This document shows positions 1 through 10,249 of a DNA stretch of 64,000 bases, piece after piece; position 1 is the first letter of the stretch; every line of letters starts with the position of its first letter. Both the position numbers and the translations under genes were made by a program. Source of the DNA: a virus. Taxonomy: Duplodnaviria > Caudoviricetes. Location: IMG/VR virus record IMGVR_UViG_2693429820_000003. The stretch is one strand, 5' to 3'. The notes beneath the pieces are model-generated. The model was not told where the DNA came from and did not search any database. It worked only from the letters and a program-made list of their open reading frames with translations.

Positions 1-375
1 GCCGCTCTGCTGCTCAGCCCAGTTCTTAGGCAGACCATGCTCGAGCAGCCAGTAGATGCGCTTGGCAGCTCCCTGTGGAGTATTGTCTAGGTAACTCCAC
101 CCTGGTCCGAAGGCCCAGTCCCACTCGTCCGAGTAGTGGGCGAGGTCGAACTGATTGCGTGAATAGCTCTGCCACGAGTAGCAATCCGCGCTGGGCTCAA
201 TACCCGCTGCGGGGCCATGACCAAGAGCACACGCAATTGCGCCGCAATCGTGCTTCGCCGGGCTGTATTCGTGATCCCGGTAAGCGCTAACGCAGTACCA
301 TTTCATGTCAAACTCGTACTCCACACGGCCGGTGATGAGATAGTCTGCGAGTTTTCTGAGGTTGTCTCTATTCAT
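1..375 (-). CDS. Hypothetical protein, family B paralog 2 (3' end runs off the window)
   Basis: Not in the ORF track; read by hand from ATG 375: MNRDNLRKLADYL...CGAIACALGHGPAAGIEP...DNTPQGAAKRIYWLLEHGLPKNW, clearly homologous to 368-763. Confidence 0.85.
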   Translation of the reverse strand, partial: MNRDNLRKLADYLITGRVEYEFDMKWYCVSAYRDHEYSPAKHDCGAIACALGHGPAAGIEPSADCYSWQSYSRNQFDLAHYSDEWDWAFGPGWSYLDNTPQGAAKRIYWLLEHGLPKNWAEQQSG

Positions 376-763
376 AGCAGAGAGGCTCCGTACGCATCAT
401 CTGTTTGTGCCAGTTCGACGGTAGTCCCTCGTCGAGGAGCCAATAGATGCGCCTCGCGGCCCCCTCCGGCGTGTTATCCGATCTTTCCCAGCTACCGGAG
501 AAGAGCCACATACCCTCGTCGCTGAATAACGAGAGGCCGAAATGGCGTCTCACATAGGTCGTCCAGGACTCATCCTTCTTGATAGGTTCGATCCCGGCGG
601 CGGGTCCATGCCCAGCTGCGCAGGCGACGGTACCGCACTCATGGACCAACGGGGCGAGATCATCGCCGTACTCGTCGCGGCAGAAGGACCCCATATCGAA
701 ACGGCACGCGGTGGTGCCCGTTGCGAGGTAGTCGGCCAGCTTCTTGAGGTTTTCACGATGCAT
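368..763 (-). CDS. Hypothetical protein, family B paralog 1
   Basis: MHRENLKKLADYL...CGTVACAAGHGPAAGIEP...DNTPEGAARRIYWLLDEGLPSNW; ATG 763 overlaps the end of the upstream gene. Confidence 0.85.
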   Translation of the reverse strand: MHRENLKKLADYLATGTTACRFDMGSFCRDEYGDDLAPLVHECGTVACAAGHGPAAGIEPIKKDESWTTYVRRHFGLSLFSDEGMWLFSGSWERSDNTPEGAARRIYWLLDEGLPSNWHKQMMRTEPLCYE

Positions 764-1106
764 TGGCGATAGCCTTATCCAAGAGTGCGAGTACTTCCCC
801 GTGTTTACGGTTGTCTGCATCGTTGAACGCGATGACGATATCCGCTGCCACACCGTTGTTGTGGAGGTCTTTGGCCTCGGGTTCGATCAGCTTTGCGAGC
901 GTCGACACCACTGCTGCCCGTGACCAGTGCGGTAGTTCGACCGCTCGGAGGGCGCCGAAGAGACACCAGCAGACCGCAGCTCCGCTCTCCGGAAGGAGCC
1001 CTGACATTCCGTCAGCGTTACGGGCGAGGCTATGTTGCGTCCACCGATCCGGGGTCGCCAGGTGGTTGCGGACAGCTTTGAGATTTTCAAGAAGCTGATT
1101 TGACAT
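753..1106 (-). CDS. DUF6197-like array paralog A9
   Basis: Motifs PDRWTQ, AVCWCLFGA, FNDADNRKHGEVLALLDKAIA. Confidence 0.85.
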   Translation of the reverse strand: MSNQLLENLKAVRNHLATPDRWTQHSLARNADGMSGLLPESGAAVCWCLFGALRAVELPHWSRAAVVSTLAKLIEPEAKDLHNNGVAADIVIAFNDADNRKHGEVLALLDKAIANAS

Positions 1107-1464
1107 TGGCGATGGCCTCATCGAGTACGTTCAGGACGTCGTCGTGAGTGGTTCTCCGGTCGTCATTGAAGGTCGGGATGTCGCTGTGCGTGCGGGTCAC
1201 GACGATCTGGATCGCGCCCTCCAACGCTTTCCAGCGAGGGTTTTTCTCGCTGGTGTCGTATGTCAGTTCATCGAGTTGGTTGGGAAACTCACCCTCGGCC
1301 ACCACCTTATTCATGGCACCGAGCATGCAGTAGCAGGTGGCATACGTCGACCAGGGCTCAATCTGGGATTGCTCCTCGTCCATAGCATAGTAGTCCCGTG
1401 TCCACTTCGCGGGCGGCGTCAGCAGGGTGCGGACAGCCTTCAGATCTTCAAGAAGCTGTGACAT
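1087..1464 (-). CDS. DUF6197-like array paralog A8
   Basis: PAKWTR, ATCYCMLGA, FNDDRRTTHDDVLNVLDEAIA. Confidence 0.85.
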   Translation of the reverse strand: MSQLLEDLKAVRTLLTPPAKWTRDYYAMDEEQSQIEPWSTYATCYCMLGAMNKVVAEGEFPNQLDELTYDTSEKNPRWKALEGAIQIVVTRTHSDIPTFNDDRRTTHDDVLNVLDEAIANVKSAS

Positions 1465-1588
1465 GCTGAAACACCCTCTTCCCTGAGTTGCGATAGGTCT
1501 TGCCCTTGGCAAATGTGGGCTTGACCCGCGTGATGACAGACGTTTTCTTCGCGCGACGGAGGGCCGCGCGTTTGACTTGGCGTGACAT
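1448..1588 (-). CDS. Small very basic peptide (46 aa)
   Basis: Hand-read MSRQVKRAALRRAKKTSVITRVKPTFAKGKTYRNSGKRVFQHVTAS; fills the gap between array genes. Confidence 0.5.
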   Translation of the reverse strand: MSRQVKRAALRRAKKTSVITRVKPTFAKGKTYRNSGKRVFQHVTAS

Positions 1589-1601
1589 GTGGGAAGTCTC
1601 T

Positions 1602-1922
1602 CTACTTAGAAAACATGATGGCGAGGTCGATGACGCTCATGACGTCGCGATGCGTGGTGTTGGGGTGGTCATGCCAATGAAGAAGGCTATCGTGGCGCCA
1701 ATGGACGTGCCCCTGGAGAGCGTTCCATAACGCTCGCCCACGTGGTTTGTCCCCGTCGGCAATCGCGTGCACCGCAAGTGGTACGCAATACCTGCCGGCT
1801 TCGGTGCGATAGGAAAGCGGAATACCATTGATGTCGAAGTGGATCATGTTCTTGGTCCACTTTTCTGGCAAGTCGACGAGGCTGCGCAGGGTGTGGAGAT
1901 CAGCGAGGAGCTGACTATTCAC
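1602..1922 (-). CDS. DUF6197-like array paralog A7 (most divergent)
   Basis: PEKWTK, RYCVPLA, WHDHPNTTHRDVMSVIDLAI; GTG start overlapping the upstream stop. Confidence 0.8.
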   Translation of the reverse strand: MNSQLLADLHTLRSLVDLPEKWTKNMIHFDINGIPLSYRTEAGRYCVPLAVHAIADGDKPRGRALWNALQGHVHWRHDSLLHWHDHPNTTHRDVMSVIDLAIMFSK

Positions 1923-2196
1923 CCCTGCCAAAATAATCCTCGATCGCCTGCTGGACCTCAACATAGAACGGGCCGGTCCAGTCTTTCACCCACTGCGGCG
2001 CGTTCGGATGGTTTCGTAAGTCGTCAGTTGCATACTGGTCATCGACCAGTGCGAGGGCAGCATACTCCCCCATTGCAACAATCTGGTCAGTGACATCCCA
2101 GGTCGTAGGTCCATAGGGATCGACTTCGACCGCGTAGTCGCGTACCCACGCCTGGGGGACGAAACGGGCGACGATGCGGTGGGTATCCTCAGGCAT
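1915..2196 (-). CDS. Hypothetical protein inserted in the array
   Basis: MPEDTHRIVARFVPQAWVRDYAVEVD...WVKDWTGPFYVEV; ATGCCTGA coupling with the upstream gene. Confidence 0.75.
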   Translation of the reverse strand: MPEDTHRIVARFVPQAWVRDYAVEVDPYGPTTWDVTDQIVAMGEYAALALVDDQYATDDLRNHPNAPQWVKDWTGPFYVEVQQAIEDYFGRGE

Positions 2197-2494
2197 TGGC
2201 GATGGCCTTATCCAAGAGTGCAAGCACGTCGGAGTGCCTGGTGTTGGGGTGGTCGTTGAAATTAGCAATGCTCCGACCGTCCCCGATGGCGTGGTAGAGG
2301 GCAGAATTGACCTCATTTTCCCGATCGAAGGGCAGAAGCTTTCGGCCAGCACCGACGAGACACCAGCACGTTGCGCTCTCATTCTGAGGGTGGACATGAA
2401 GGCGATGCTTGTTCATCGCCAACCAACCCTGCGTCCACCGGTTCGGGTCCGAGAGCAGGTCGCGGACAGCGGTGAGGTCCTGTTTGAGGGTCAT
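2189..2494 (-). CDS. DUF6197-like array paralog A6
   Basis: PNRWTQG, ATCWCLVGA, FNDHPNTRHSDVLALLDKAIA. Confidence 0.87.
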   Translation of the reverse strand: MTLKQDLTAVRDLLSDPNRWTQGWLAMNKHRLHVHPQNESATCWCLVGAGRKLLPFDRENEVNSALYHAIGDGRSIANFNDHPNTRHSDVLALLDKAIANA

Positions 2495-2811
2495 GGGTTG
2501 GCCTCGATCACTTTATCAAGGAAGGCCATGACACCCGGGTGAGTACCGTTGTCGTTAAGGGTGAGGTACGAACCTGGTTCTGTGGCAGCCGCCGTAAGAG
2601 CCTTGTCCACGGCGTGGAAGCGGGACCAGTGTTGTCTGGCGTGGAGCTTGGCGTTCGCTCCGTTCAGGCACCAACACGTAGCTGCGGGATGGTTAAATGT
2701 TACGCCACAACCCTCGTGGTCGCGAGCATTCTCGCCCTTGGTCCATTTGGCGGGATCGGAGAGGAGTGTGCGGATTGCTCGGAGGTCAGTGTTGAGTTGG
2801 GATGCGGACAT
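2491..2811 (-). CDS. DUF6197-like array paralog A5
   Basis: PAKWTKG, ATCWCLNGA, LNDNGTHPGVMAFLDKVI; RBS AAGGAG. Confidence 0.87.
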   Translation of the reverse strand: MSASQLNTDLRAIRTLLSDPAKWTKGENARDHEGCGVTFNHPAATCWCLNGANAKLHARQHWSRFHAVDKALTAAATEPGSYLTLNDNGTHPGVMAFLDKVIEANP

Positions 2812-2862
2812 GCGTTATCGCTCCTTCCCTGGGCGGGAGAACGGACGTGATTGTGGGTGGTG

Positions 2863-3183
2863 CTAGGGCGCGGCGGCTATCGCTTGGTCGAGCAGGTTCA
2901 GGACGTCGTCGTGCCTGGTCGAACCGTTGTCGTTGAAGGTAATGAAGCCCGTCCGCCCTGGTACCGCTGCATTCAACGCGCTATCAAGAGCATCGTACCG
3001 TCTGGTGTAGCGGGCATCCGTGATCTTAATCATTGCACCATTCAGGCACCAACAGGTGGCGTTGTCGTCATCGGGGAGTGCCTGCCGACCGAGTGCGTCA
3101 CGGGCATTGAAGTTTTTCGTCCATCTGTCAGGCGTATCGAGGAGCTGGCGGATAGCCTGAAGATCAGCCTTGAGCTGAGACAT
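2863..3183 (-). CDS. DUF6197-like array paralog A4
   Basis: PDRWTK, ATCWCLNGA, FNDNGSTRHDDVLNLLDQAIA. Confidence 0.87.
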   Translation of the reverse strand: MSQLKADLQAIRQLLDTPDRWTKNFNARDALGRQALPDDDNATCWCLNGAMIKITDARYTRRYDALDSALNAAVPGRTGFITFNDNGSTRHDDVLNLLDQAIAAAP

Positions 3184-3484
3184 GTGCGATGGTCCTGTCC
3201 AAGAGGTTGAGGACGTCGTGGTGATTTGTGTTGGGGTCGTCGTTGAAGTCAGCGATGCTCTTGTCATAGGTGGGGATATGAAACCGCACAGCGTTCTTCA
3301 CATCGCGTTGTTCTTCAGGAGATGCAACGGAGTTGATCGCGCCCAACATGCAGTAGCAGGCGGCATTGCTGCTTTCGGCAAACGTAGGGTTTCCGCTCTC
3401 ATCTTTAGCAAGATACCCCTTCGTCCACTTCGTCGGGTCCGCGAGGAGTGCGCGGACCTTGGTGAGGTTCTCGAGCAGGGTCAT
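3164..3484 (-). CDS. DUF6197-like array paralog A3
   Basis: PTKWTKG, AACYCMLGA, FNDDPNTNHHDVLNLLDRTIA. Confidence 0.87.
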   Translation of the reverse strand: MTLLENLTKVRALLADPTKWTKGYLAKDESGNPTFAESSNAACYCMLGAINSVASPEEQRDVKNAVRFHIPTYDKSIADFNDDPNTNHHDVLNLLDRTIAHVSAQG

Positions 3485-3816
3485 TGGGCTGCCTCGATTG
3501 CTTTGTTGAGCAATGACATGACGTCATCGTGGGTGGTGTTCGGGTCGTCGTTGAAGCCGACATAACCCCCATGGTTCGTAGGCACCGACCGGGTCAGGAT
3601 GACTCTGATTGCCGCGTAACGGCCCTCATCATCATCATCTAACAGACCTACCTTGGCCGCAGCCCCATCCAGGCACCAGCACACTGCCGTGGGGTGATCC
3701 GAAGTGCAGATGTCGCCATCGCGATCCCTCGCAAAGGCATCCTGTGTCCACGCTGAGGGCGTGGACAGCAGGTCTCGCATGGCGATGAGGTCAGTTTTGA
3801 GTTGGGACTGGGACAT
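3481..3816 (-). CDS. DUF6197-like array paralog A2
   Basis: PSAWTQ, AVCWCLDGA, FNDDPNTTHDDVMSLLNKAI. Confidence 0.87.
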   Translation of the reverse strand: MSQSQLKTDLIAMRDLLSTPSAWTQDAFARDRDGDICTSDHPTAVCWCLDGAAAKVGLLDDDDEGRYAAIRVILTRSVPTNHGGYVGFNDDPNTTHDDVMSLLNKAIEAAQ

Positions 3817-4177
3817 TGTCGAGCACCTGAGGGTTGAGGCCGTACTGGGCTGCGATGTTGCGCATTTCCTGGAGCCACGCGGTGAGCGGGCCACCTTTTG
3901 TTTCGGGCATATGGTTGTCGTGCGCGTCTTGGATCGCGGCGAGAAACTCCACGTGGTTGTTGAAACGGACCAGCTCGAAGGCCGGGATCGCGCTCCAAGC
4001 GCTGTGTCCTTCCATCTCCCTCACGTACTCGTCGTCAGTTATGAGGATGCCGAGCGCACACTTGGTACCGTTGGGGCCGCGATATCGACAATCGTTGTTG
4101 TGATTGATTGACCGAACACCCTGAGCGACGAGACCCGTGGCCACAGTGTCGAAGATTTCCTGCTTGGTGAGAGACAT
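3791..4177 (-). CDS. Phage hypothetical protein (CxYR...KCALG motif)
   Basis: RBS AAGGAGG; MSLTKQEIFDTVATGLVAQG...CRYRGPNGTKCALG...IQDAHD. Confidence 0.8.
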   Translation of the reverse strand: MSLTKQEIFDTVATGLVAQGVRSINHNNDCRYRGPNGTKCALGILITDDEYVREMEGHSAWSAIPAFELVRFNNHVEFLAAIQDAHDNHMPETKGGPLTAWLQEMRNIAAQYGLNPQVLDNVPVPTQN

Positions 4178-4235
4178 GCGTCCTCCTTCACGCTGTGGTT
4201 CAGCGTGTTGTAGTGGGCTTGGGTTGTGGGAATGG

Positions 4236-4436
4236 TTAGGGAAGGTGGCGCATCACCAGCCAGTAGAGACTGTTGTAGTCATCACCTGTTGGTGCTTGCT
4301 CCATGTTATTCAGGCGGGTGTCGTACACCGCGACACGGGTCCGAATGTCTTGCATGGTTTGGTGCAGTTTAAGGTACTGACGCGCGATATAACCCGCGAG
4401 CAGTACCCCTGGGAGAAGGCCGAGAAGGAACCCCAT
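4236..4436 (-). CDS. Small membrane-anchored protein
   Basis: N-terminal hydrophobic helix GFLLGLLPGVLLAGYIA; TGATG coupling. Confidence 0.7.
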   Translation of the reverse strand: MGFLLGLLPGVLLAGYIARQYLKLHQTMQDIRTRVAVYDTRLNNMEQAPTGDDYNSLYWLVMRHLP

Positions 4437-4738
4437 CAGGGTGTGGCCGCGATGGTGCGGTCGATCAGGTCAAGGACCATGGGGTGAGTGGTGTTGGGGT
4501 CGTCGTTGAAGACGGAAATCCTATGGTCACCGAGTTGTGCTCTCAGTGCGAGAACGCATGCAGTGTATGCAGGCCCGTCGGGGTTTGTGCGGCCAATTGC
4601 ACCATACAGGCACCAGGACTTCGCCAGGGTGGGATCATAGGTTTGATTACCATCGATATCCCGTGCACCTGCGTTCTGGGTCCAGTTCTCTGGAGGCGTC
4701 AGGAGAGTGCGGACAGCCTGAAGGTGAGCTTTGAGCAT
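4436..4738 (-). CDS. DUF6197-like array paralog A1
   Basis: PENWTQ, AKSWCLYGA, FNDDPNTTHPMVLDLIDRTIA. Confidence 0.87.
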   Translation of the reverse strand: MLKAHLQAVRTLLTPPENWTQNAGARDIDGNQTYDPTLAKSWCLYGAIGRTNPDGPAYTACVLALRAQLGDHRISVFNDDPNTTHPMVLDLIDRTIAATP

Positions 4739-4793
4739 GACGGTGCATTCCCTAGGTGAGAGGGTTGTGGTGGGTGTGAAATGTGGGAGTGAG

Positions 4794-5303
4794 TTAGTAG
4801 GCTTCGGTGGCCACGTACTGTCGCTGCTGCGCAGGTGGGAGACCCTTACGGTTCCTAGCCTGCTCACGAAGCTCACGTGCTAACCGTCGAGATTCAGGCT
4901 CTCTAGGGTGTTCACCTCTCATTACCTCAATGAAGTGCAGAGGGTTGATGCATAGCGAATTGGTGCACTCACCGTTGGTCTGCAGTGGGAGCAGACTCTC
5001 AACCGGTATGCCGTTGTGACGCGCGAATAGCTCGCGTCTGGGGTTCACCCTCTTTCGGTTGAGGGTAGCAACAGGTCGAAGGCTCTCACGTTTGGCACGA
5101 GGGGCCCTGATCGGCTGGTCAGGTCTACCACCGTTGTACGGGGTGTATTTGTAGACTTTGTCAGGGTTGGTTGTGGCACCAGTCCAGACCCAGCAGCGGG
5201 TTTTAGGTGGGTTGTTCGGGTACCCCGTAGGGGTTTTGATGTGCTTACGCCAGAGGTGCAGTTTGATCGCCATGGGCATTATTTCACTAGTTGACTGAAA
5301 CAA
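4794..5303 (-). CDS. HNH/His-Cys box homing-endonuclease-like protein, possibly degenerate
   Basis: CWVWTGA and CTNSLCINPLH motifs typical of phage HNH zinc-binding loop nucleases; start uncertain. Confidence 0.6.
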   Translation of the reverse strand: MFQSTSEIMPMAIKLHLWRKHIKTPTGYPNNPPKTRCWVWTGATTNPDKVYKYTPYNGGRPDQPIRAPRAKRESLRPVATLNRKRVNPRRELFARHNGIPVESLLPLQTNGECTNSLCINPLHFIEVMRGEHPREPESRRLARELREQARNRKGLPPAQQRQYVATEAY

Positions 5304-5329
5304 TTACAAAAATTGAAAAACTCTTGTTC

Positions 5330-5560
5330 CACTCACTGTCCTGAAGGCTATTCAATTCTCTAACCTACTCCTATGGACTCCTTTTGGACTGGCGGACTCT
5401 TTGGGGAATGTAGTGGGATAACTGATTTAGAAATATCCTATTAATATCAATAAGATAAAATAATAATAAAGTAATAAACAGAATATATAAACAGTGGGGG
5501 CTTAAAAAGAAAAAAGAAAGTAATAGGGATATAAGGGTTTTACTGCCCCGCAAAAAATCT
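5330..5560. other. AT-rich, strand-asymmetric (A-rich on +) non-coding tract
   Basis: gaaatatcctattaatatcaataagataaaataataataaagtaataaacagaatatataa in an otherwise GC-rich genome. Confidence 0.8.
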
Positions 5561-5746
5561 CTACCTGCCGATGGCTTTCCGGGCGGTGCTGGCGATATCG
5601 GTTTCCAGCTGATGTAAAGTAAAATAGTGATCAAAGCTCAGAGCTGGCAGTTTCACGCGAGCTTCTCCGTTGCTCAGCGTGTAGGTGCCATCAGGGTGGC
5701 GAGTGAGCACAATGACGCGATCCTGGTAGATCACCTTGTCGTCCAT
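5561..5746 (-). CDS. Small hypothetical early protein (61 aa)
   Basis: GGAGG RBS then MDDKVIYQDRVIVLTRHPDGTYTLSNG; preceded by the conserved hairpin. Confidence 0.7.
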   Translation of the reverse strand: MDDKVIYQDRVIVLTRHPDGTYTLSNGEARVKLPALSFDHYFTLHQLETDIASTARKAIGR

Positions 5747-5758
5747 GAAAGCCTCCGT

Positions 5759-5774
5759 TTTCCCGTTCGGGAAA
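5759..5774 (-). promoter_or_regulatory. Palindrome/hairpin TTTCCCGAACGGGAAA, copy 1
   Basis: Identical 14-bp core also at 6362 and 7335, each directly 5' of an RBS. Confidence 0.75.
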
Positions 5775-5851
5775 CTGAAATCCGCGCAAGCGGAAACGTC
5801 CAGGCTGGAGATCCAACCCGGAGTAAAGCCCGCGCGCGAGATTTGAAAAGA

Positions 5852-5868
5852 TGTTGATATTATCAACA
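5852..5868. promoter_or_regulatory. Operator-like palindrome TGTTGATA-T-TATCAACA
   Basis: Perfect 8-bp inverted repeat with 1-bp spacer in an AT-rich patch upstream of 5746. Confidence 0.5.
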
Positions 5869-6001
5869 CCGATTTTGTTTGCTGCGCCCGCCAAGCGGGA
5901 GACAATTCTCTCCCGAACCTCGCCCCGACCCCGGCCCACAAAAACGAACAACTGTTACGCATCCGAAATGATATTCACCGCCGGCCACGGTCACGGCCCC
6001 G

Positions 6002-6343
6002 TCAGCGACGTCCGCACACATGGCCCCGAGCTGGCACCCAAGCCCGCGTCTTAGGCGGAATGCGGACCGTGCGCGCGCGCTGGCTGTGAGACGCTTCCCC
6101 AAGCCCTTGCGTGGTGAATACGTTTCGGCCGCCATGCTCGTCCAGGAGGTGAGCTTGCGCCTGCGCCAGGTCCGCGTCGGCCAAATCGGCTTCCCGCGCG
6201 ATCTCTTGAGCCCGTCCCAGGATCGCAGCCCGCCGCGATACCTCGCGGTGACTCAGAATGGGCCGCTGAGCCGGCTCCGCCCAGTCCGCGCTACCTGTGG
6301 GGCGCAAAACCCGTTTGCCCGTCAGTGAGTCAATGTGAGTCAT
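6002..6343 (-). CDS. Hypothetical early protein
   Basis: ATG preceded by GGGGGG RBS-like run and the conserved hairpin. Confidence 0.6.
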   Translation of the reverse strand: MTHIDSLTGKRVLRPTGSADWAEPAQRPILSHREVSRRAAILGRAQEIAREADLADADLAQAQAHLLDEHGGRNVFTTQGLGEASHSQRARTVRIPPKTRAWVPARGHVCGRR

Positions 6344-6361
6344 TGTGAGGCCCCCCGTGTT

Positions 6362-6375
6362 TTCCCGTTCGGGAA
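6362..6375 (-). promoter_or_regulatory. Palindrome/hairpin TTCCCGAACGGGAA, copy 2
   Basis: Exact repeat of the core at 5760 and 7335. Confidence 0.75.
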
Positions 6376-6376
6376 T

Positions 6377-6493
6377 TCAAAATCGGCGCATGCGTCGCCA
6401 GTTCAGATACGACTGAACCAAGAACGCTATGGCCAAGCCCACAATCGCGGTTAGGGCGGGCGTATAAATCGTAATCAACGCATCGCTATCCAC
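6377..6493 (-). CDS. Small single-pass membrane protein (38 aa)
   Basis: Hand-read: GGAGG RBS, GTG start, DSDALITIYTPALTAIVGLAIAFLVQSYLNWRRMRRF (hydrophobic helix, basic tail). Confidence 0.6.
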   Translation of the reverse strand: MDSDALITIYTPALTAIVGLAIAFLVQSYLNWRRMRRF

Positions 6494-6511
6494 GTGCGCC
6501 TCCGTTGGTGT

Positions 6512-6538
6512 CGGTCCCGCCTCGCACAGGCGGGACCG
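6512..6538. other. GC-rich hairpin without U-tract (processing/stability element?)
   Basis: CGGTCCCGCCT-cgcac-AGGCGGGACCG, 11-bp perfect stem after the stop of 6551-7318. Confidence 0.55.
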
Positions 6539-6550
6539 TCCGGGGGAAGG

Positions 6551-7318
6551 TTAGGCCGCTTGGGCCTGTTCAGTTGAGGACAGGGCGAAGAGGCGCGCAT
6601 TGGCTGCCTTGATGACGTTGGTAACGTCGTCGACGTCCATTTCACCAATGAAGCTGATCAGATCAGCAACCGTAATGCGCAGTGTCATCTGTTCAGCGTC
6701 GGGATTGTCGCTAATGACGTTCTCCGCCATGGGAATGCCCGCCGCCTGCGCCGTGGCGGCGGCCTGCGCTGGCGTTGCGGTGGCTGCATCGCGCAGTTCC
6801 TGCAATTGTTGTTCAAGCTTGGCCAGCTTGTCGGCTGCCACCTGTTCAGCGGCGGCCTTGGCCTTGGCGGCCCTGTCATCCGTGCGCAGTTCCTCGCGCA
6901 TTTCCTGAGTAAGCGCCACGCCAACCTTGGCGAAGCGATTGGCATCGGCCAACCCCTCGACATTCATGTCAGCCAGAAAGCCCGTGATCGCTGTTTCCTT
7001 AGCGTCCTCGCTGTTGGCTTGCTGGAATTCCTTGACGCGCACATGCTCGAAATATTTCTCCCGCATCGTGGCCAGCACGCGGGTTGCGCAATCGACGCGA
7101 TTGTAAGCCGTCGTCTTGGCCATTTCCGCATTCAAGAGCGCCGCAACAATGCGGCTCTTGGCGTCCTTCACTACATTGGCGTGCACCTTGACGTGGCCAA
7201 TATGGAAGTTTGTCTTGACGGCCAGGCACGTGACGATGGCCGCCAGATTGGCATGCTCTGCGCTGTTAACTTCGATGGCCGTTTCAGAAACCCGATTGAT
7301 GTAATGTTGAATGCTCAT
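6551..7318 (-). CDS. Hypothetical alanine-rich, partly coiled-coil early protein
   Basis: 255 aa ORF, AGGAG RBS, C-terminus ...TEQAQAA. Confidence 0.85.
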   Translation of the reverse strand: MSIQHYINRVSETAIEVNSAEHANLAAIVTCLAVKTNFHIGHVKVHANVVKDAKSRIVAALLNAEMAKTTAYNRVDCATRVLATMREKYFEHVRVKEFQQANSEDAKETAITGFLADMNVEGLADANRFAKVGVALTQEMREELRTDDRAAKAKAAAEQVAADKLAKLEQQLQELRDAATATPAQAAATAQAAGIPMAENVISDNPDAEQMTLRITVADLISFIGEMDVDDVTNVIKAANARLFALSSTEQAQAA

Positions 7319-7333
7319 TTTCGTTTACTCCTA

Positions 7334-7349
7334 TTTCCCGTTCGGGAAA
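7334..7349 (-). promoter_or_regulatory. Palindrome/hairpin TTTCCCGAACGGGAAA, copy 3
   Basis: Immediately 5' of the AGGAG RBS of 6551-7318. Confidence 0.75.
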
Positions 7350-7639
7350 GTGAAGATTAGACATAGTAATGGCGTTCACTCGTTAGAGTGTCTTGAAGTA
7401 CTGGAGGGGGAAGGCCCCTGTTCACGAACTGAATATGACAGTGAGGATGGGGAGTTGGAAGGAGAACGTCAGATTGGATAAGTATATGATTTTATTGTAT
7501 TATTTTTACATATAGTGGGGAACCGTCGCGCATTTATTCTCGCCAAATTTTTCGATTTTTGGATGCTAGTACTAGCAACTTCCGCCAACAATACTTGGCA
7601 GAAGGGAGTCCAAGGACTCCCTCCGAATGAGCCAGGTGC

Positions 7640-7666
7640 AAAAGAAAAGGGGCCCGAAGGCCCCTC
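7640..7666 (-). terminator. Rho-independent terminator after the primase gene
   Basis: Minus strand AGGGGCC-TTCG-GGCCCCT-TTTCTTTT. Confidence 0.85.
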
Positions 7667-7729
7667 AATTCCCGTTCAGCGCTAGTTCCCGCTCCATTTC
7701 GTAAAGCGCGCGGTCCCACCAATCCGCGT

Positions 7730-10249
7730 CTACTTCGACGGCTTCGTCGGCTTCGTCGGATCGACAATCGTGAGGAACCTGTACGCTGAGTCCCCCGACC
7801 CGGCTCTGGAAGTCTTGCCCAGACCGTCCAACACTTCCTTGAAGCCGAACTCCTTCTGCAACTGGCGCATACGATCGATAAAGGTCTCGTATGCCGCAGG
7901 CTGCACATTCGCCTCGCTGACGCAGAACAAGCGGTAGGCGAGATAAACCTGCCGGGCGGGTGTGGTAGCCTCGCTCGATGCCCCGTTCTCGCCAACCCCC
8001 AGCTTCAGGTGTCCCCGATGATGAGAGTTGGCGAGGAAAAAACGGACAGGGTTCGTCCGATTTTCAACGCGTTTACATAGCTCCAAGCTGCTGGCGGGCA
8101 CGCAATACTCCGCGCGATCCTTCAATGTGATCAGCCCCTGCACTGCCCATGCCGCGATGGCCTCCCGTTCCTGCTCCAAGATCAGCTGATCGATGTTGAC
8201 GATGCGATCTTTCGTCTCGATGGAGTTGGAGAACTCCAAGAACAACCAGCGACGGGTGAAGCCTGCCGATGAGTCATCGGTACGAGGCAGAACGTTGGAG
8301 GCGAACCAGTGAGCAGCGATCGGATTGAACTTGTAGAGGGGTTGGTACTTACGTTGAGCCTGAATAGTGGAACCTTCCACCACCAGCTTGAAGATATCAC
8401 CCGAGATGAGGTCCCGCTCCGATAGCTCACCTGCAACATTGAGCACCTTGTCGGTCAGCTCCGCGACCGAGAACTGGTTGTTCCAGAACTTCGGAGCCAC
8501 CGCTGCTGCACAACCATCAGGCATCAGGCCCTGCATAATGCGTAGAATACGTGATTTACCCGTATCAGCTGGGCCATAGAGACAGAACACGCGGAAGTAC
8601 TGTGGCGCCACACCAAACAGGGTGGCTGCAAAAGCCTCCTGCAGAGCCTCAACCTTGTCGGCAAAGTCAGGATCGGTGCCCCAATAACGCACCAGAAGCT
8701 CCGAAAACATCGTCGCTTTGCCCGCCAACTCCGGCTGGTAGGGGTAGGGAAGCACATAAGTGCAGCCAAAGTCCTTGTTATGGGGCTGTAACGTCAGATC
8801 TTCGGTCAGATAGCCATTGACGAAGTTTATGCCCCGGATATCGCGTTGTTTGAGGTCAGCACGCGTCAACGTCGCCATAACCTTCACGACAGCGCGATAG
8901 TCGTTGTCCTTCTTGCATGCCGGGAAGTTGCCATACTCCGTGGCCACGATCTTCTGCAGGTCAGCGGCCTCCATTGGCACCCAATGCGCGCCTTGCCATT
9001 GGTAAAACATCTCATTGGAGAAGCGTAGCTCCCCTGTCCGCTCGACATTGTCGATGACAGCACGCGCGATCTCGGTCTGATCGTTGCCCGCAATGTCGCC
9101 CTTCTGAAATTCGCGAATTTGCCGAAGGATGCTTGCGGCGGTGAGGTTGTTCGCCGTCGCACCCTGGAGCACTTTCACAATATGCTGCTGCTCGAGCGGT
9201 GTGATGCCTGGATTACCGGCCACGCGCGCGCACATAATCCCAACCAACTCGGTCATCTTCGGGTTGGTGTGGTCGAGACCGTCTGACTGGATCTTCGCAT
9301 GGAAGTCGTCGATGATCTCCTGATACGAGAAACGCCGGTTTTCACTGGTGATGTCGTCGAGGCCCAGCTCTTTCAGCTGGTCTACGGTCATACCCTCATC
9401 CCAACCAGCTGGAAGCGTCAGCTTTTTCGGGCCAAAAAGGTCCTTCCGCAGCCATTCGACGATCTTTTCCGTCATCTTTGCAGGCGGGAGTTCGTCTCCC
9501 GGAACCTTTTCGACACGGTCCTGCACCCACTGAAAACCGACGTCCAGACCCTCTTTCAGGGTGATATTGCCCTTGATGATGTCGGAAACGATGCCACCGG
9601 CGAAGCGGACGAGCGCATTATCGCGCCCACCAGCCGGAACCCAGTTCACAAAGCCGACGCGCGCAGCACCTGAAGCCACCTCGTAGCCGTTCTGACGCAG
9701 CGCATCGCGGGCCAGCTCGCCAAACGACGTCGGCAAGGTGCCAATCTGGCCTAGCACGTCCAGCAGATCGCAGTTGGCGGTGTAGGGCGCCATCAATCCC
9801 GGATGGATCGAGGGCGGCAACAACACCTGAGCACCCGTCGACAGGAAGTCGAGGACGTTGGTGCCGTCCGCGAGCTTCACGTGGAAGGTGTTCTGGCCCT
9901 GATACTTGAACAGCTTGACGTAGCCCTTGCGCCCACGACGCAGCCACGGCGATTTCGGTGTGATGCTGTCGATAGCATTCAGTATGCCCGGTTCGTCACT
10001 ATCGACGTCGAGCGCAACAAGGCCAGAAGCCTGCCCCAGAACCAGGCCCATGTTGTGGTCCGGAAACATCTGCAGCCAACCGGCTTGCTCGGCATCCCCA
10101 ACGGGCACGGCCGAGTAACGCTGCCAGGTAGAAATCGCAGGACGCTTGCCGGCCGCCTTGTCGGCCCCGGACGGGTCGGGTCGTGTGATCGGGATAACCG
10201 ATAGTCCAGCAGCCCAATAGCCTGGCGCGTTCTCACTAAAAATACCCAT
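7730..10249 (-). CDS. Primase-polymerase (Prim-Pol) fused to D5-like SF3 helicase
   Basis: N-terminal GKRPA...NMGLVLG...LVALDVD and VLLPPSIHP; Walker A GPADTGKS; SF3 motif C FASNVLP. Confidence 0.9.
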   Translation of the reverse strand: MGIFSENAPGYWAAGLSVIPITRPDPSGADKAAGKRPAISTWQRYSAVPVGDAEQAGWLQMFPDHNMGLVLGQASGLVALDVDSDEPGILNAIDSITPKSPWLRRGRKGYVKLFKYQGQNTFHVKLADGTNVLDFLSTGAQVLLPPSIHPGLMAPYTANCDLLDVLGQIGTLPTSFGELARDALRQNGYEVASGAARVGFVNWVPAGGRDNALVRFAGGIVSDIIKGNITLKEGLDVGFQWVQDRVEKVPGDELPPAKMTEKIVEWLRKDLFGPKKLTLPAGWDEGMTVDQLKELGLDDITSENRRFSYQEIIDDFHAKIQSDGLDHTNPKMTELVGIMCARVAGNPGITPLEQQHIVKVLQGATANNLTAASILRQIREFQKGDIAGNDQTEIARAVIDNVERTGELRFSNEMFYQWQGAHWVPMEAADLQKIVATEYGNFPACKKDNDYRAVVKVMATLTRADLKQRDIRGINFVNGYLTEDLTLQPHNKDFGCTYVLPYPYQPELAGKATMFSELLVRYWGTDPDFADKVEALQEAFAATLFGVAPQYFRVFCLYGPADTGKSRILRIMQGLMPDGCAAAVAPKFWNNQFSVAELTDKVLNVAGELSERDLISGDIFKLVVEGSTIQAQRKYQPLYKFNPIAAHWFASNVLPRTDDSSAGFTRRWLFLEFSNSIETKDRIVNIDQLILEQEREAIAAWAVQGLITLKDRAEYCVPASSLELCKRVENRTNPVRFFLANSHHRGHLKLGVGENGASSEATTPARQVYLAYRLFCVSEANVQPAAYETFIDRMRQLQKEFGFKEVLDGLGKTSRAGSGDSAYRFLTIVDPTKPTKPSK

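Follow-up and report, generated by a model that had tools for sequence, protein, structure and literature searches.

In the poxvirus K3L-type gene accordion, a small accessory viral gene is multiplied in tandem, and its copies are recent, near-identical and unstable, varying within populations. The modular exchange described by Susskind and Botstein for lambdoid phages reportedly leaves the same linker in different phage genomes beside different modules. The window analyzed here, a whole stretch of 64,000 nucleotides (nt) of viral DNA (G000:C2:2802372-2866371), carries a tandem array of nine paralogs of the DUF6197 family (PF19698) with unrelated genes interleaved among them. The 3' ends of these genes contain recurrent DNA blocks, some of which hold the start codon of the next gene, and the original prediction for this DNA proposed that recombination at the blocks adds, drops or swaps units. 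We consider it likely that the array is an old tandem expansion, made in place within a compact prophage operon, that its 3' blocks are coding sequence put to two uses at once, and that no ongoing recombination is needed to account for them.

What is seen here falls under two familiar headings, overlapping coupled cistrons and tandem paralogs of old standing; it represents ordinary compact phage gene packing, and cassette shuffling is not supported. The locus resembles the K3L-type accordion in the tandem multiplication of one small accessory viral gene, but its copies are diverged (the proteins are 32-44% identical to the paralog A3484) and no variation was seen in two sequencing runs. It shares with the lambdoid boundary or linker sequences a short conserved sequence at gene borders, flanked by unrelated genes, whereas the repeats here lie within one genome and inside paralogous coding sequence. 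Among the titles and abstracts of the literature joining gene accordions with bacteriophages, nothing on phage paralog arrays was found.

Coordinates 1-5279 form a gap-poor run of minus-strand genes, which we read as one compact operon. In order of transcription these are an endonuclease-like gene, A4738, a hydrophobic open reading frame (ORF) of 66 amino acids (aa), x4177, A3816, A3484, A3183, A2811, A2494, h2196, A1922, s1588, A1464, A1106, B763 and B375. All DUF6197 matches in the 6.4-Mb genome lie inside the array. Eight of the nine paralogs, at 38.7-65 bits, exceed the PF19698 gathering cut-off (24.6 bits); A2811 has no Pfam match at E≤0.01 and is placed in the family by full-length alignment and by a supported clade with A3816 and A3183. 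The family motifs W-T, C-x-C-x-x-G-A, N-D, H and the V..L(L/F)D.AI helix are present in the paralogs, and the invariant or nearly invariant columns of a 48-sequence alignment are W20, T21, A26, C45, G48, A49, N81 and D82, at several of which A1922 deviates. The paralogs are as follows, with the basis of each row in brackets.

4436-4738, minus strand: A4738, DUF6197, 100 aa (PF19698 E=2.8e-15); its stop overlaps the start of the 66-aa ORF by 1 nt.
3481-3816, minus strand: A3816, DUF6197, 111 aa (Pfam, junction); ATGA overlap with A3484, with the GAGG of the AIE codons 8 nt ahead of the ATG.
3164-3484, minus strand: A3484, DUF6197, 106 aa (Pfam, junction); the A3183 ATG lies inside the tail IAHVSAQG-stop (20-nt overlap).
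2863-3183, minus strand: A3183, DUF6197, 106 aa (Pfam); followed by a 51-nt gap.
2491-2811, minus strand: A2811, DUF6197-like, 106 aa (alignment, clade c1); ATGA overlap with A2494.
2189-2494, minus strand: A2494, DUF6197, 101 aa (Pfam, junction); the h2196 ATG lies inside the tail AIANA-stop (8-nt overlap).
1602-1922, minus strand: A1922, divergent DUF6197, GTG start, 106 aa (Pfam E=1.4e-9).
1087-1464, minus strand: A1464, DUF6197, 125 aa (Pfam, junction); the A1106 ATG lies inside the tail AIANVKSAS-stop (20-nt overlap).
753-1106, minus strand: A1106, DUF6197, 117 aa (Pfam, junction); the B763 ATG lies inside the tail AIANAS-stop (11-nt overlap).

The repeated blocks, read directly from the sequence, lie within the 3' portions of these genes.

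760-788, minus strand: 3' block of A1106, made up of the ALLDKAIANA codons; a TAAGG stands 9 nt ahead of the ATG.
2193-2221, minus strand: 3' block of A2494, twin of 760-788.
1104-1118, minus strand: shorter 3' block copy cattggcgatggcct, in A1464.
2241-2260, minus strand: FNDxPNT block copy in A2494, with further copies at 3228-3247, 3536-3555 and 4491-4510.

The recurrences on which the original prediction was built are real. The near-identical pair it placed at about 760-789 and 2193-2222 agrees at 28 of 29 nt, the single difference being a/g, and the copy it gave at 1104-1118 was found there. The 20-mer TTCAACGACGACCCCAACAC of the FND block matches at all four of its claimed places with at most one mismatch each (three were allowed, and 0.02 matches expected), and weaker copies of this block occur at 1135-1171, 1641-1677 and 2902-2938. 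The 13-mer GCYATCGCCAATG is exact on the minus strand at 761-773, 1104-1116 and 2194-2206; the window holds these three exact matches and one with a single mismatch, against a shuffle mean of 0.13, and four matches were reached in none of 100 shuffles. In the exact copies the ATG is the first codon of B763 (763), A1106 (1106) and h2196 (2196), so the block-end ATG does start downstream genes of different families. Because the matches lie between homologous genes, their excess over chance shows homology only, and the relevant null is amino-acid constraint. The nucleotide identity of the paralogs in the N-terminal block (0.59) equals or exceeds that in the two 3' blocks (0.59 and 0.57), and thus the 3' end is not special in its DNA conservation.

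Inspection of the junctions revealed a second use for the same codons. Between 5279 and 1 the genes meet at 15 junctions, and at twelve of these they overlap, by 1-26 nt (1, 4, 4, 8, 8, 8, 11, 17, 20, 20 and 26 nt among them); a purine-rich motif resembling a Shine-Dalgarno (SD) sequence stands 8-10 nt upstream of nearly every start in the operon. At the four junctions where the next ATG is embedded in a DUF6197 gene, the SD-like motif is provided by the D-[K/R/E] codons of LLD[KRE] as GATAAGG, GACAGGA or GATGAGG, and at the two ATGA junctions by GAGG of the A/V-I-E codons. The residue after LLD varies while the nucleotides stay AGG, which is direct sequence evidence of a second constraint. 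The fourth embedded-ATG junction, A3484 to A3183, goes beyond those listed originally and has CATG at the same alignment column. The proposal that the 3' blocks are both coding sequence and start site is thus upheld by the motif at 8-10 nt and the embedded ATG, and it extends to family B, where two junctions of the same design (TGCTATG; B763 to B375 and B375 to a 55-aa ORF) overlap by 8 nt each. The family B tails read EPLCY[E/V]-stop, with the next ATG within the codons TGC-TAT-G and GGAG or GAGGAG about 11 nt upstream (at 368-375, and 23 nt past the window start). Two junctions that are unrelated, h2196 to A1922 (1915-1922) and B763 to B375 (368-375), have in common an 8-nt overlap of the form NTGAATAG.

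These genes are co-directional, with stop-start overlaps or very short gaps, the arrangement by which coupled pairs are recognized, and a ribosome finishing one gene would be expected to start the next (translational coupling). According to a review of translational coupling (PMC12548453), the commonest spacings are -4, -1 and -8 nt, and coupling efficiency drops at longer overlaps. Judged against that review, the operon resembles its coupled overlapping cistrons (NTGA, -1 and -8 spacings, with the SD inside the upstream gene) in the shared direction of its genes, in the 1-, 4- and 8-nt overlaps at seven junctions (six in the window plus B375 to the 55-aa ORF) and in the SD-like motif within upstream coding sequence. 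It differs in that five junctions overlap by 11-26 nt, in the range of falling efficiency, and in that the start is placed within a conserved motif of the family, which makes the whole junction common to paralogs. Unrelated metagenomic DUF6197 arrays form AAGGAG or GAGGAG from K-E or E-E codons in their tails; of their 19 distinct junctions, with start codons picked by a heuristic, 8 are 4-nt overlaps.

We propose a model in which the 3' blocks encode the best-conserved elements of DUF6197, the motif FND..H and a long helix at the C terminus, V..LLD.AI. Because the genes overlap, the same codons also serve the next cistron, supplying its SD-like motif (GATAAGG, GACAGGA, GATGAGG or GAGG) and, in one subclade, the next ATG itself as AAT-G or CAT-G; a ribosome ending one gene would start the next. 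The embedded-ATG junction would have been inherited within one paralog subclade and copied with the gene when units or unit pairs duplicated. The DNA identity of the blocks would then reflect conserved residues, a codon bias where residues are invariant, and the constraint imposed by the ribosome site.

The contribution of residue constraint was estimated from residue-identical codon pairs in the codon alignment of the nine paralogs, with the operon's codon usage as the expectation.

N-terminal block: same codon in 170/381 pairs (0.45), expected 0.34.
Central CWC block: same codon in 115/339 pairs (0.34), expected 0.38.
Variable part: same codon in 37/148 pairs (0.25), expected 0.32.
FND block: same codon in 173/223 pairs (0.78), expected 0.52.
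LLD.AIA block: same codon in 100/215 pairs (0.47), expected 0.41.

Codon identity in the LLD.AIA block is near expectation, and the block that bears the start codon is therefore without a clear synonymous excess. The idea that synonymous sites are unusually conserved in the blocks holds for the FND block alone, where the excess amounts to a family-wide bias toward C-ending codons. Two-fold codons end in C at 57/66 positions of the FND block versus 108/185 elsewhere in the paralogs (Fisher p=2e-5); for comparison, the counts are 122/174 in other genes of the operon and 432/608 in structural genes. Forty members found in other genomes show this bias too at their invariant N, D and H (85/103 versus 554/836, p=7e-4), and its recurrence in unrelated members marks it as a family trait rather than a product of recombination in this array. 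It would be explained most simply by codon choice at critical residues. Amino-acid constraint, the explanation that the original prediction had set against its own, thus largely accounts for the identity of the blocks.

The copies are old by several measures of divergence. Compared segment by segment, the paralogs share 27-48% of their nucleotides in the variable part and 33-53% in the central one, and in a tree with 40 relatives the terminal branches span 0.75-2.3 changes per site (46 relatives passed the filters, six were left out for long N-terminal extensions or near-duplication, and A1922 was added for the tree only). The near-identical tandem copies by which a gene accordion is recognized were not found among them. 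Two clades are supported, c1 (A3816, A3183 and A2811; 95/83) and c2 (A3484, A2494, A1464 and A1922; 85/77); A4738 and A1106 have no resolved placement, and the tree is compatible with a single origin of all nine. Three of the four genes carrying an embedded ATG belong to c2, and the fourth, A1106, has c2 genes as its nearest neighbors in 4 of 5 segments. The junction together with the first codons of the next gene is alike between A3816 to A3484 and A2811 to A2494, and between A3484 to A3183 and A1464 to A1106, as would be expected if gene pairs had duplicated long ago together with their junctions.

Several observations weigh against an account by inheritance and constraint. The clade to which A1106 belongs is itself not settled by the tree. 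The last twelve residues of A2494 and A1106 are all identical, with 32 of 36 nt (89%) shared; identity is 45% in the FND block next to them and 33-62% in the other segments, and the genes downstream of the patch are unrelated. Inheritance and constraint explain this patch only loosely. In a Sawyer-type run test over 235 polymorphic gap-free columns, the longest A2494/A1106 run, of 14 sites, had a global p of 0.026, in a test confounded by the clustering of conserved columns. For three unrelated genes to begin precisely at the inherited ATG, there would have to have been either exact fusions or selection among many inexact ones. Elsewhere in the family, copies 2 and 3 of locus L029 are identical over 35 consecutive nt of the 3' block, the rare codons ATA and CTA among them, and in L053 a 39-nt run with at most one mismatch ends at the stop-start junction, with similarity continuing into the next gene. 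Local homogenization does, by the look of these runs, occur in the DUF6197 family.

Short-tract gene conversion, which would homogenize the 3' ends by concerted evolution of the junction with copy number unchanged, draws on just these identity islands, and on the finding that in 5 of 10 arrays the longest near-identical run stops no more than 15 nt from the end of the gene. We nevertheless judge it unlikely. In the A2494/A1106 patch, the best of the pairs, 4 of 12 same-residue codons differ (8 are the same, versus 4.6 expected; P=0.04 before correction for 36 pairs). In the other arrays the same-codon share is 124/209 in the last 18 codons versus 402/745 elsewhere, no clear excess; no segment of the protein is better conserved than the C-terminal helix anyway, and the striking pairs were chosen after looking. 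There are weak hints that the 3' patches record occasional short conversion at the most conserved segment, which would not be evidence of unit shuffling. The near-identical patches lie at L029:4004-4038 versus 4458-4492 and, approximately, L053:4664-4750 versus 4945-5030, in paralogs otherwise 54-62% identical; the L053 patch crosses the stop-start overlap and extends into the following paralog.

At least two DUF6197 copies, and up to six, occur in 18 of 49 genome and metagenome loci, several of which are duplicates of one another. Tandem arrays were seen in the environmental contigs L039 (six copies), L021 (four in a 1.3-kb contig), L053 (four), and L029 and L044 (three). Copies from one locus usually cluster in the tree, which indicates that expansion happened repeatedly and suggests that the arrays may be independent expansions.

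The original prediction itself, in which unequal exchange at the 3' blocks adds, drops or swaps units while ribosome site and ATG stay in register, as a gene accordion or as cassettes joined at boundary sequences, now seems improbable. It could call on the identical junction GCYATCGCCAATG before three different downstream genes, the repetition of the embedded-ATG design in family B, the interleaving of paralog clades along the array and the recurrence of tandem arrays in other loci. Homologous exchange has a minimal length of about 25 nt, to which the largest patch (29 nt) comes close; the other block copies are merely 13-15 nt long. The claim that the blocks drive such exchange is not supported, and is partly contradicted, by the age of the copies, by codon identity near expectation and by a patch without flanking identity: the A2494/A1106 identity stops on both sides, which is not the pattern of a recent crossover, since that leaves one side running on.

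Neither direct variation nor relatives that could show breakpoints were found. A second public run covering the same 9 kb showed zero substitutions, three single-base indels at low depth and zero joints. The expected copy-number variants or joints were thus not seen in the contigs of the two runs compared, one of which is probably the source of the window and one of which is of low depth, and contigs drop rare variants. The second run (X2, matching window 1-9000) dates from 2016 and is filed under a different organism label, with the prophage arm free of substitutions; this match reflects either one strain filed under two names or a transfer that is very recent. Megablast against phages found no close relatives, tblastn against phages gave ten records at 29-36%, and a search of plasmids gave one record at 27%. 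DUF6197 loci in genome contigs (7) reached at most 42% and those in metagenomes (42) at most 46%. No close relatives appeared in viral contigs, and a related array was found by DNA in 0 of 64 genomes of the same genus and in 0 of 60 above the cut-off in a further search. The protein database returned only the query itself as a close match, and relatives of the prophage primase, at most 36% identical, include none with DUF6197. No closely related array was thus present in any collection searched.

A variant of these ideas treats the 3' end with its SD and ATG as a portable junction, at which exchange or conversion would plug any downstream gene behind any paralog with translation pre-wired, in diversifying phage accessory arrays like those of DUF6197 and family B. 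We give it little credence; if true, it would explain why unrelated orphan genes begin exactly at the inherited ATG, and why near-identical 3' patches occur in three independent arrays (the window, L029 and L053). That the blocks are instead a nucleic-acid signal conserved beyond coding, either a protein-binding site or a start-gating RNA structure, is highly improbable and already weakly refuted, since the FND synonymous excess that speaks for it recurs as the same codon bias in unrelated DUF6197 members of other genomes, and four 96-nt junction stretches fold no more stably than shuffles (z -0.33 to -0.84).

The array region is the early or accessory arm of an integrated prophage. Above it lie genes for a primase, a large terminase, a portal and a tape measure protein of 1818 aa, and below the window start are an integrase about 14 kb off, rIIA/rIIB-like genes, a recombination directionality factor (RDF) and a second phrog_17693 copy. 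Other features of the operon are listed below.

5281-5560, no strand: AT-rich gap upstream of the operon (composition).
4794-5279, minus strand: endonuclease-like gene, the operon's first (phrog_1872).
4236-4436, minus strand: m4436, the hydrophobic, membrane-like 66-aa ORF interleaved in the array (ORF calls).
3791-4177, minus strand: x4177, 128 aa, interleaved in the array (phrog_17693).
1915-2196, minus strand: h2196, orphan ORF, 93 aa; its start is the ATG embedded in A2494 and its 3' end overlaps the A1922 GTG start by 8 nt.
1448-1588, minus strand: s1588, basic ORF, 46 aa; its 3' end and the start of A1464 have 17 nt in common.
368-763, minus strand: B763, family B paralog, 131 aa; the B375 ATG lies inside the tail LCYE-stop, an 8-nt overlap (junction, paralog alignment).
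1-375, minus strand: B375, family B paralog, extending 23 nt beyond the window start; the ATG of the 55-aa ORF lies inside the tail LCYV-stop (junction, paralog alignment).

The gap at 5281-5560 is sharply AT-rich over 280 bp, between the operon's first gene and the next gene, and is likely a regulatory region. Promoter and terminator scans did not rise above shuffles, and a lone minus-strand promoter-like match within the gap was not above chance. A search for attachment sites at the prophage ends found no tRNA, and the shared repeat was a single 14-mer. The prophage looks temperate, and next to its integrase end lie the rIIA-like (733 aa) and rIIB-like (303 aa) genes (L059:4624-7733, window about -11376 to -8267). 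The phrog_17693 protein is present as two diverged copies, 35% identical, one inside the array at 3791-4177 and the other about 5 kb downstream (L059:14978-15364). The ORF h2196 is coding-like in its GC fractions at the three codon positions (GC1/2/3 = 0.68/0.39/0.66), and no relatives of it were found in Pfam, PHROG or further searches. Family B is without a Pfam or PHROG match; the start of B763 is confirmed by alignment to its paralog B375 (MHRENL versus MNRDNL). Comparison of DUF6197, family B and the phrog_17693 pair by hhalign, aimed at a common superfamily, gave probabilities of 0.2-0.3%, with family B and phrog_17693 profiles of two sequences each.

Length and sequence variation among the nine paralogs falls almost entirely in one central segment, alignment columns 60-108, between conserved N- and C-terminal helices, a pattern that looks like a scaffold plus variable region. 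A confident AlphaFold (AF2) model of A3484 (predicted local distance difference test, pLDDT, 97.2; predicted template modeling score, pTM, 0.90) has a small core framed by N- and C-terminal helices, the latter formed by residues 88-105. A Foldseek search of the PDB with this model returned nothing at E≤0.001. Assignment of a function from the fold was tried with VIA-align and rejected, the best match (Z 6.7, to the C-terminal domain of glutamyl-tRNA synthetases) being below the meaningful level for helical matches. Structure matches in BFVD and the Atlas are uncharacterized phage proteins only, with template modeling scores (TM) of 0.71-0.85 for the ten matches at E≤0.001. The paralogs thus resemble the DUF6197 or phrog_762 phage proteins in Pfam score (eight of nine) and predicted fold, but these occur elsewhere in fewer copies than the nine in tandem here: one to three places per record in ten phage records, six in the largest environmental array, and, in a sample of 400 further genomes of the class, one or two matches in each of 5 (among them G328, which is unpublished). 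Nine copies in one genome is unusual, and this is the largest array among those examined.

In the part of the literature available, mention of DUF6197 was found only in a genome announcement. From the early-region position and the diversified copies we speculate that its role is directed at the host; repeated tandem arrays whose copies keep a scaffold and vary in a central segment would suit a diversified set of binders or inhibitors made early in infection. DUF6197 emerges as a widespread phage family without a convincing match to a solved fold, one that expands repeatedly into tandem arrays. The array is a clear example of how gene overlap burdens the conserved end of a protein with a second constraint, that of also holding a ribosome site and a start codon; paralogs under such a constraint can appear recombinogenic in their DNA.

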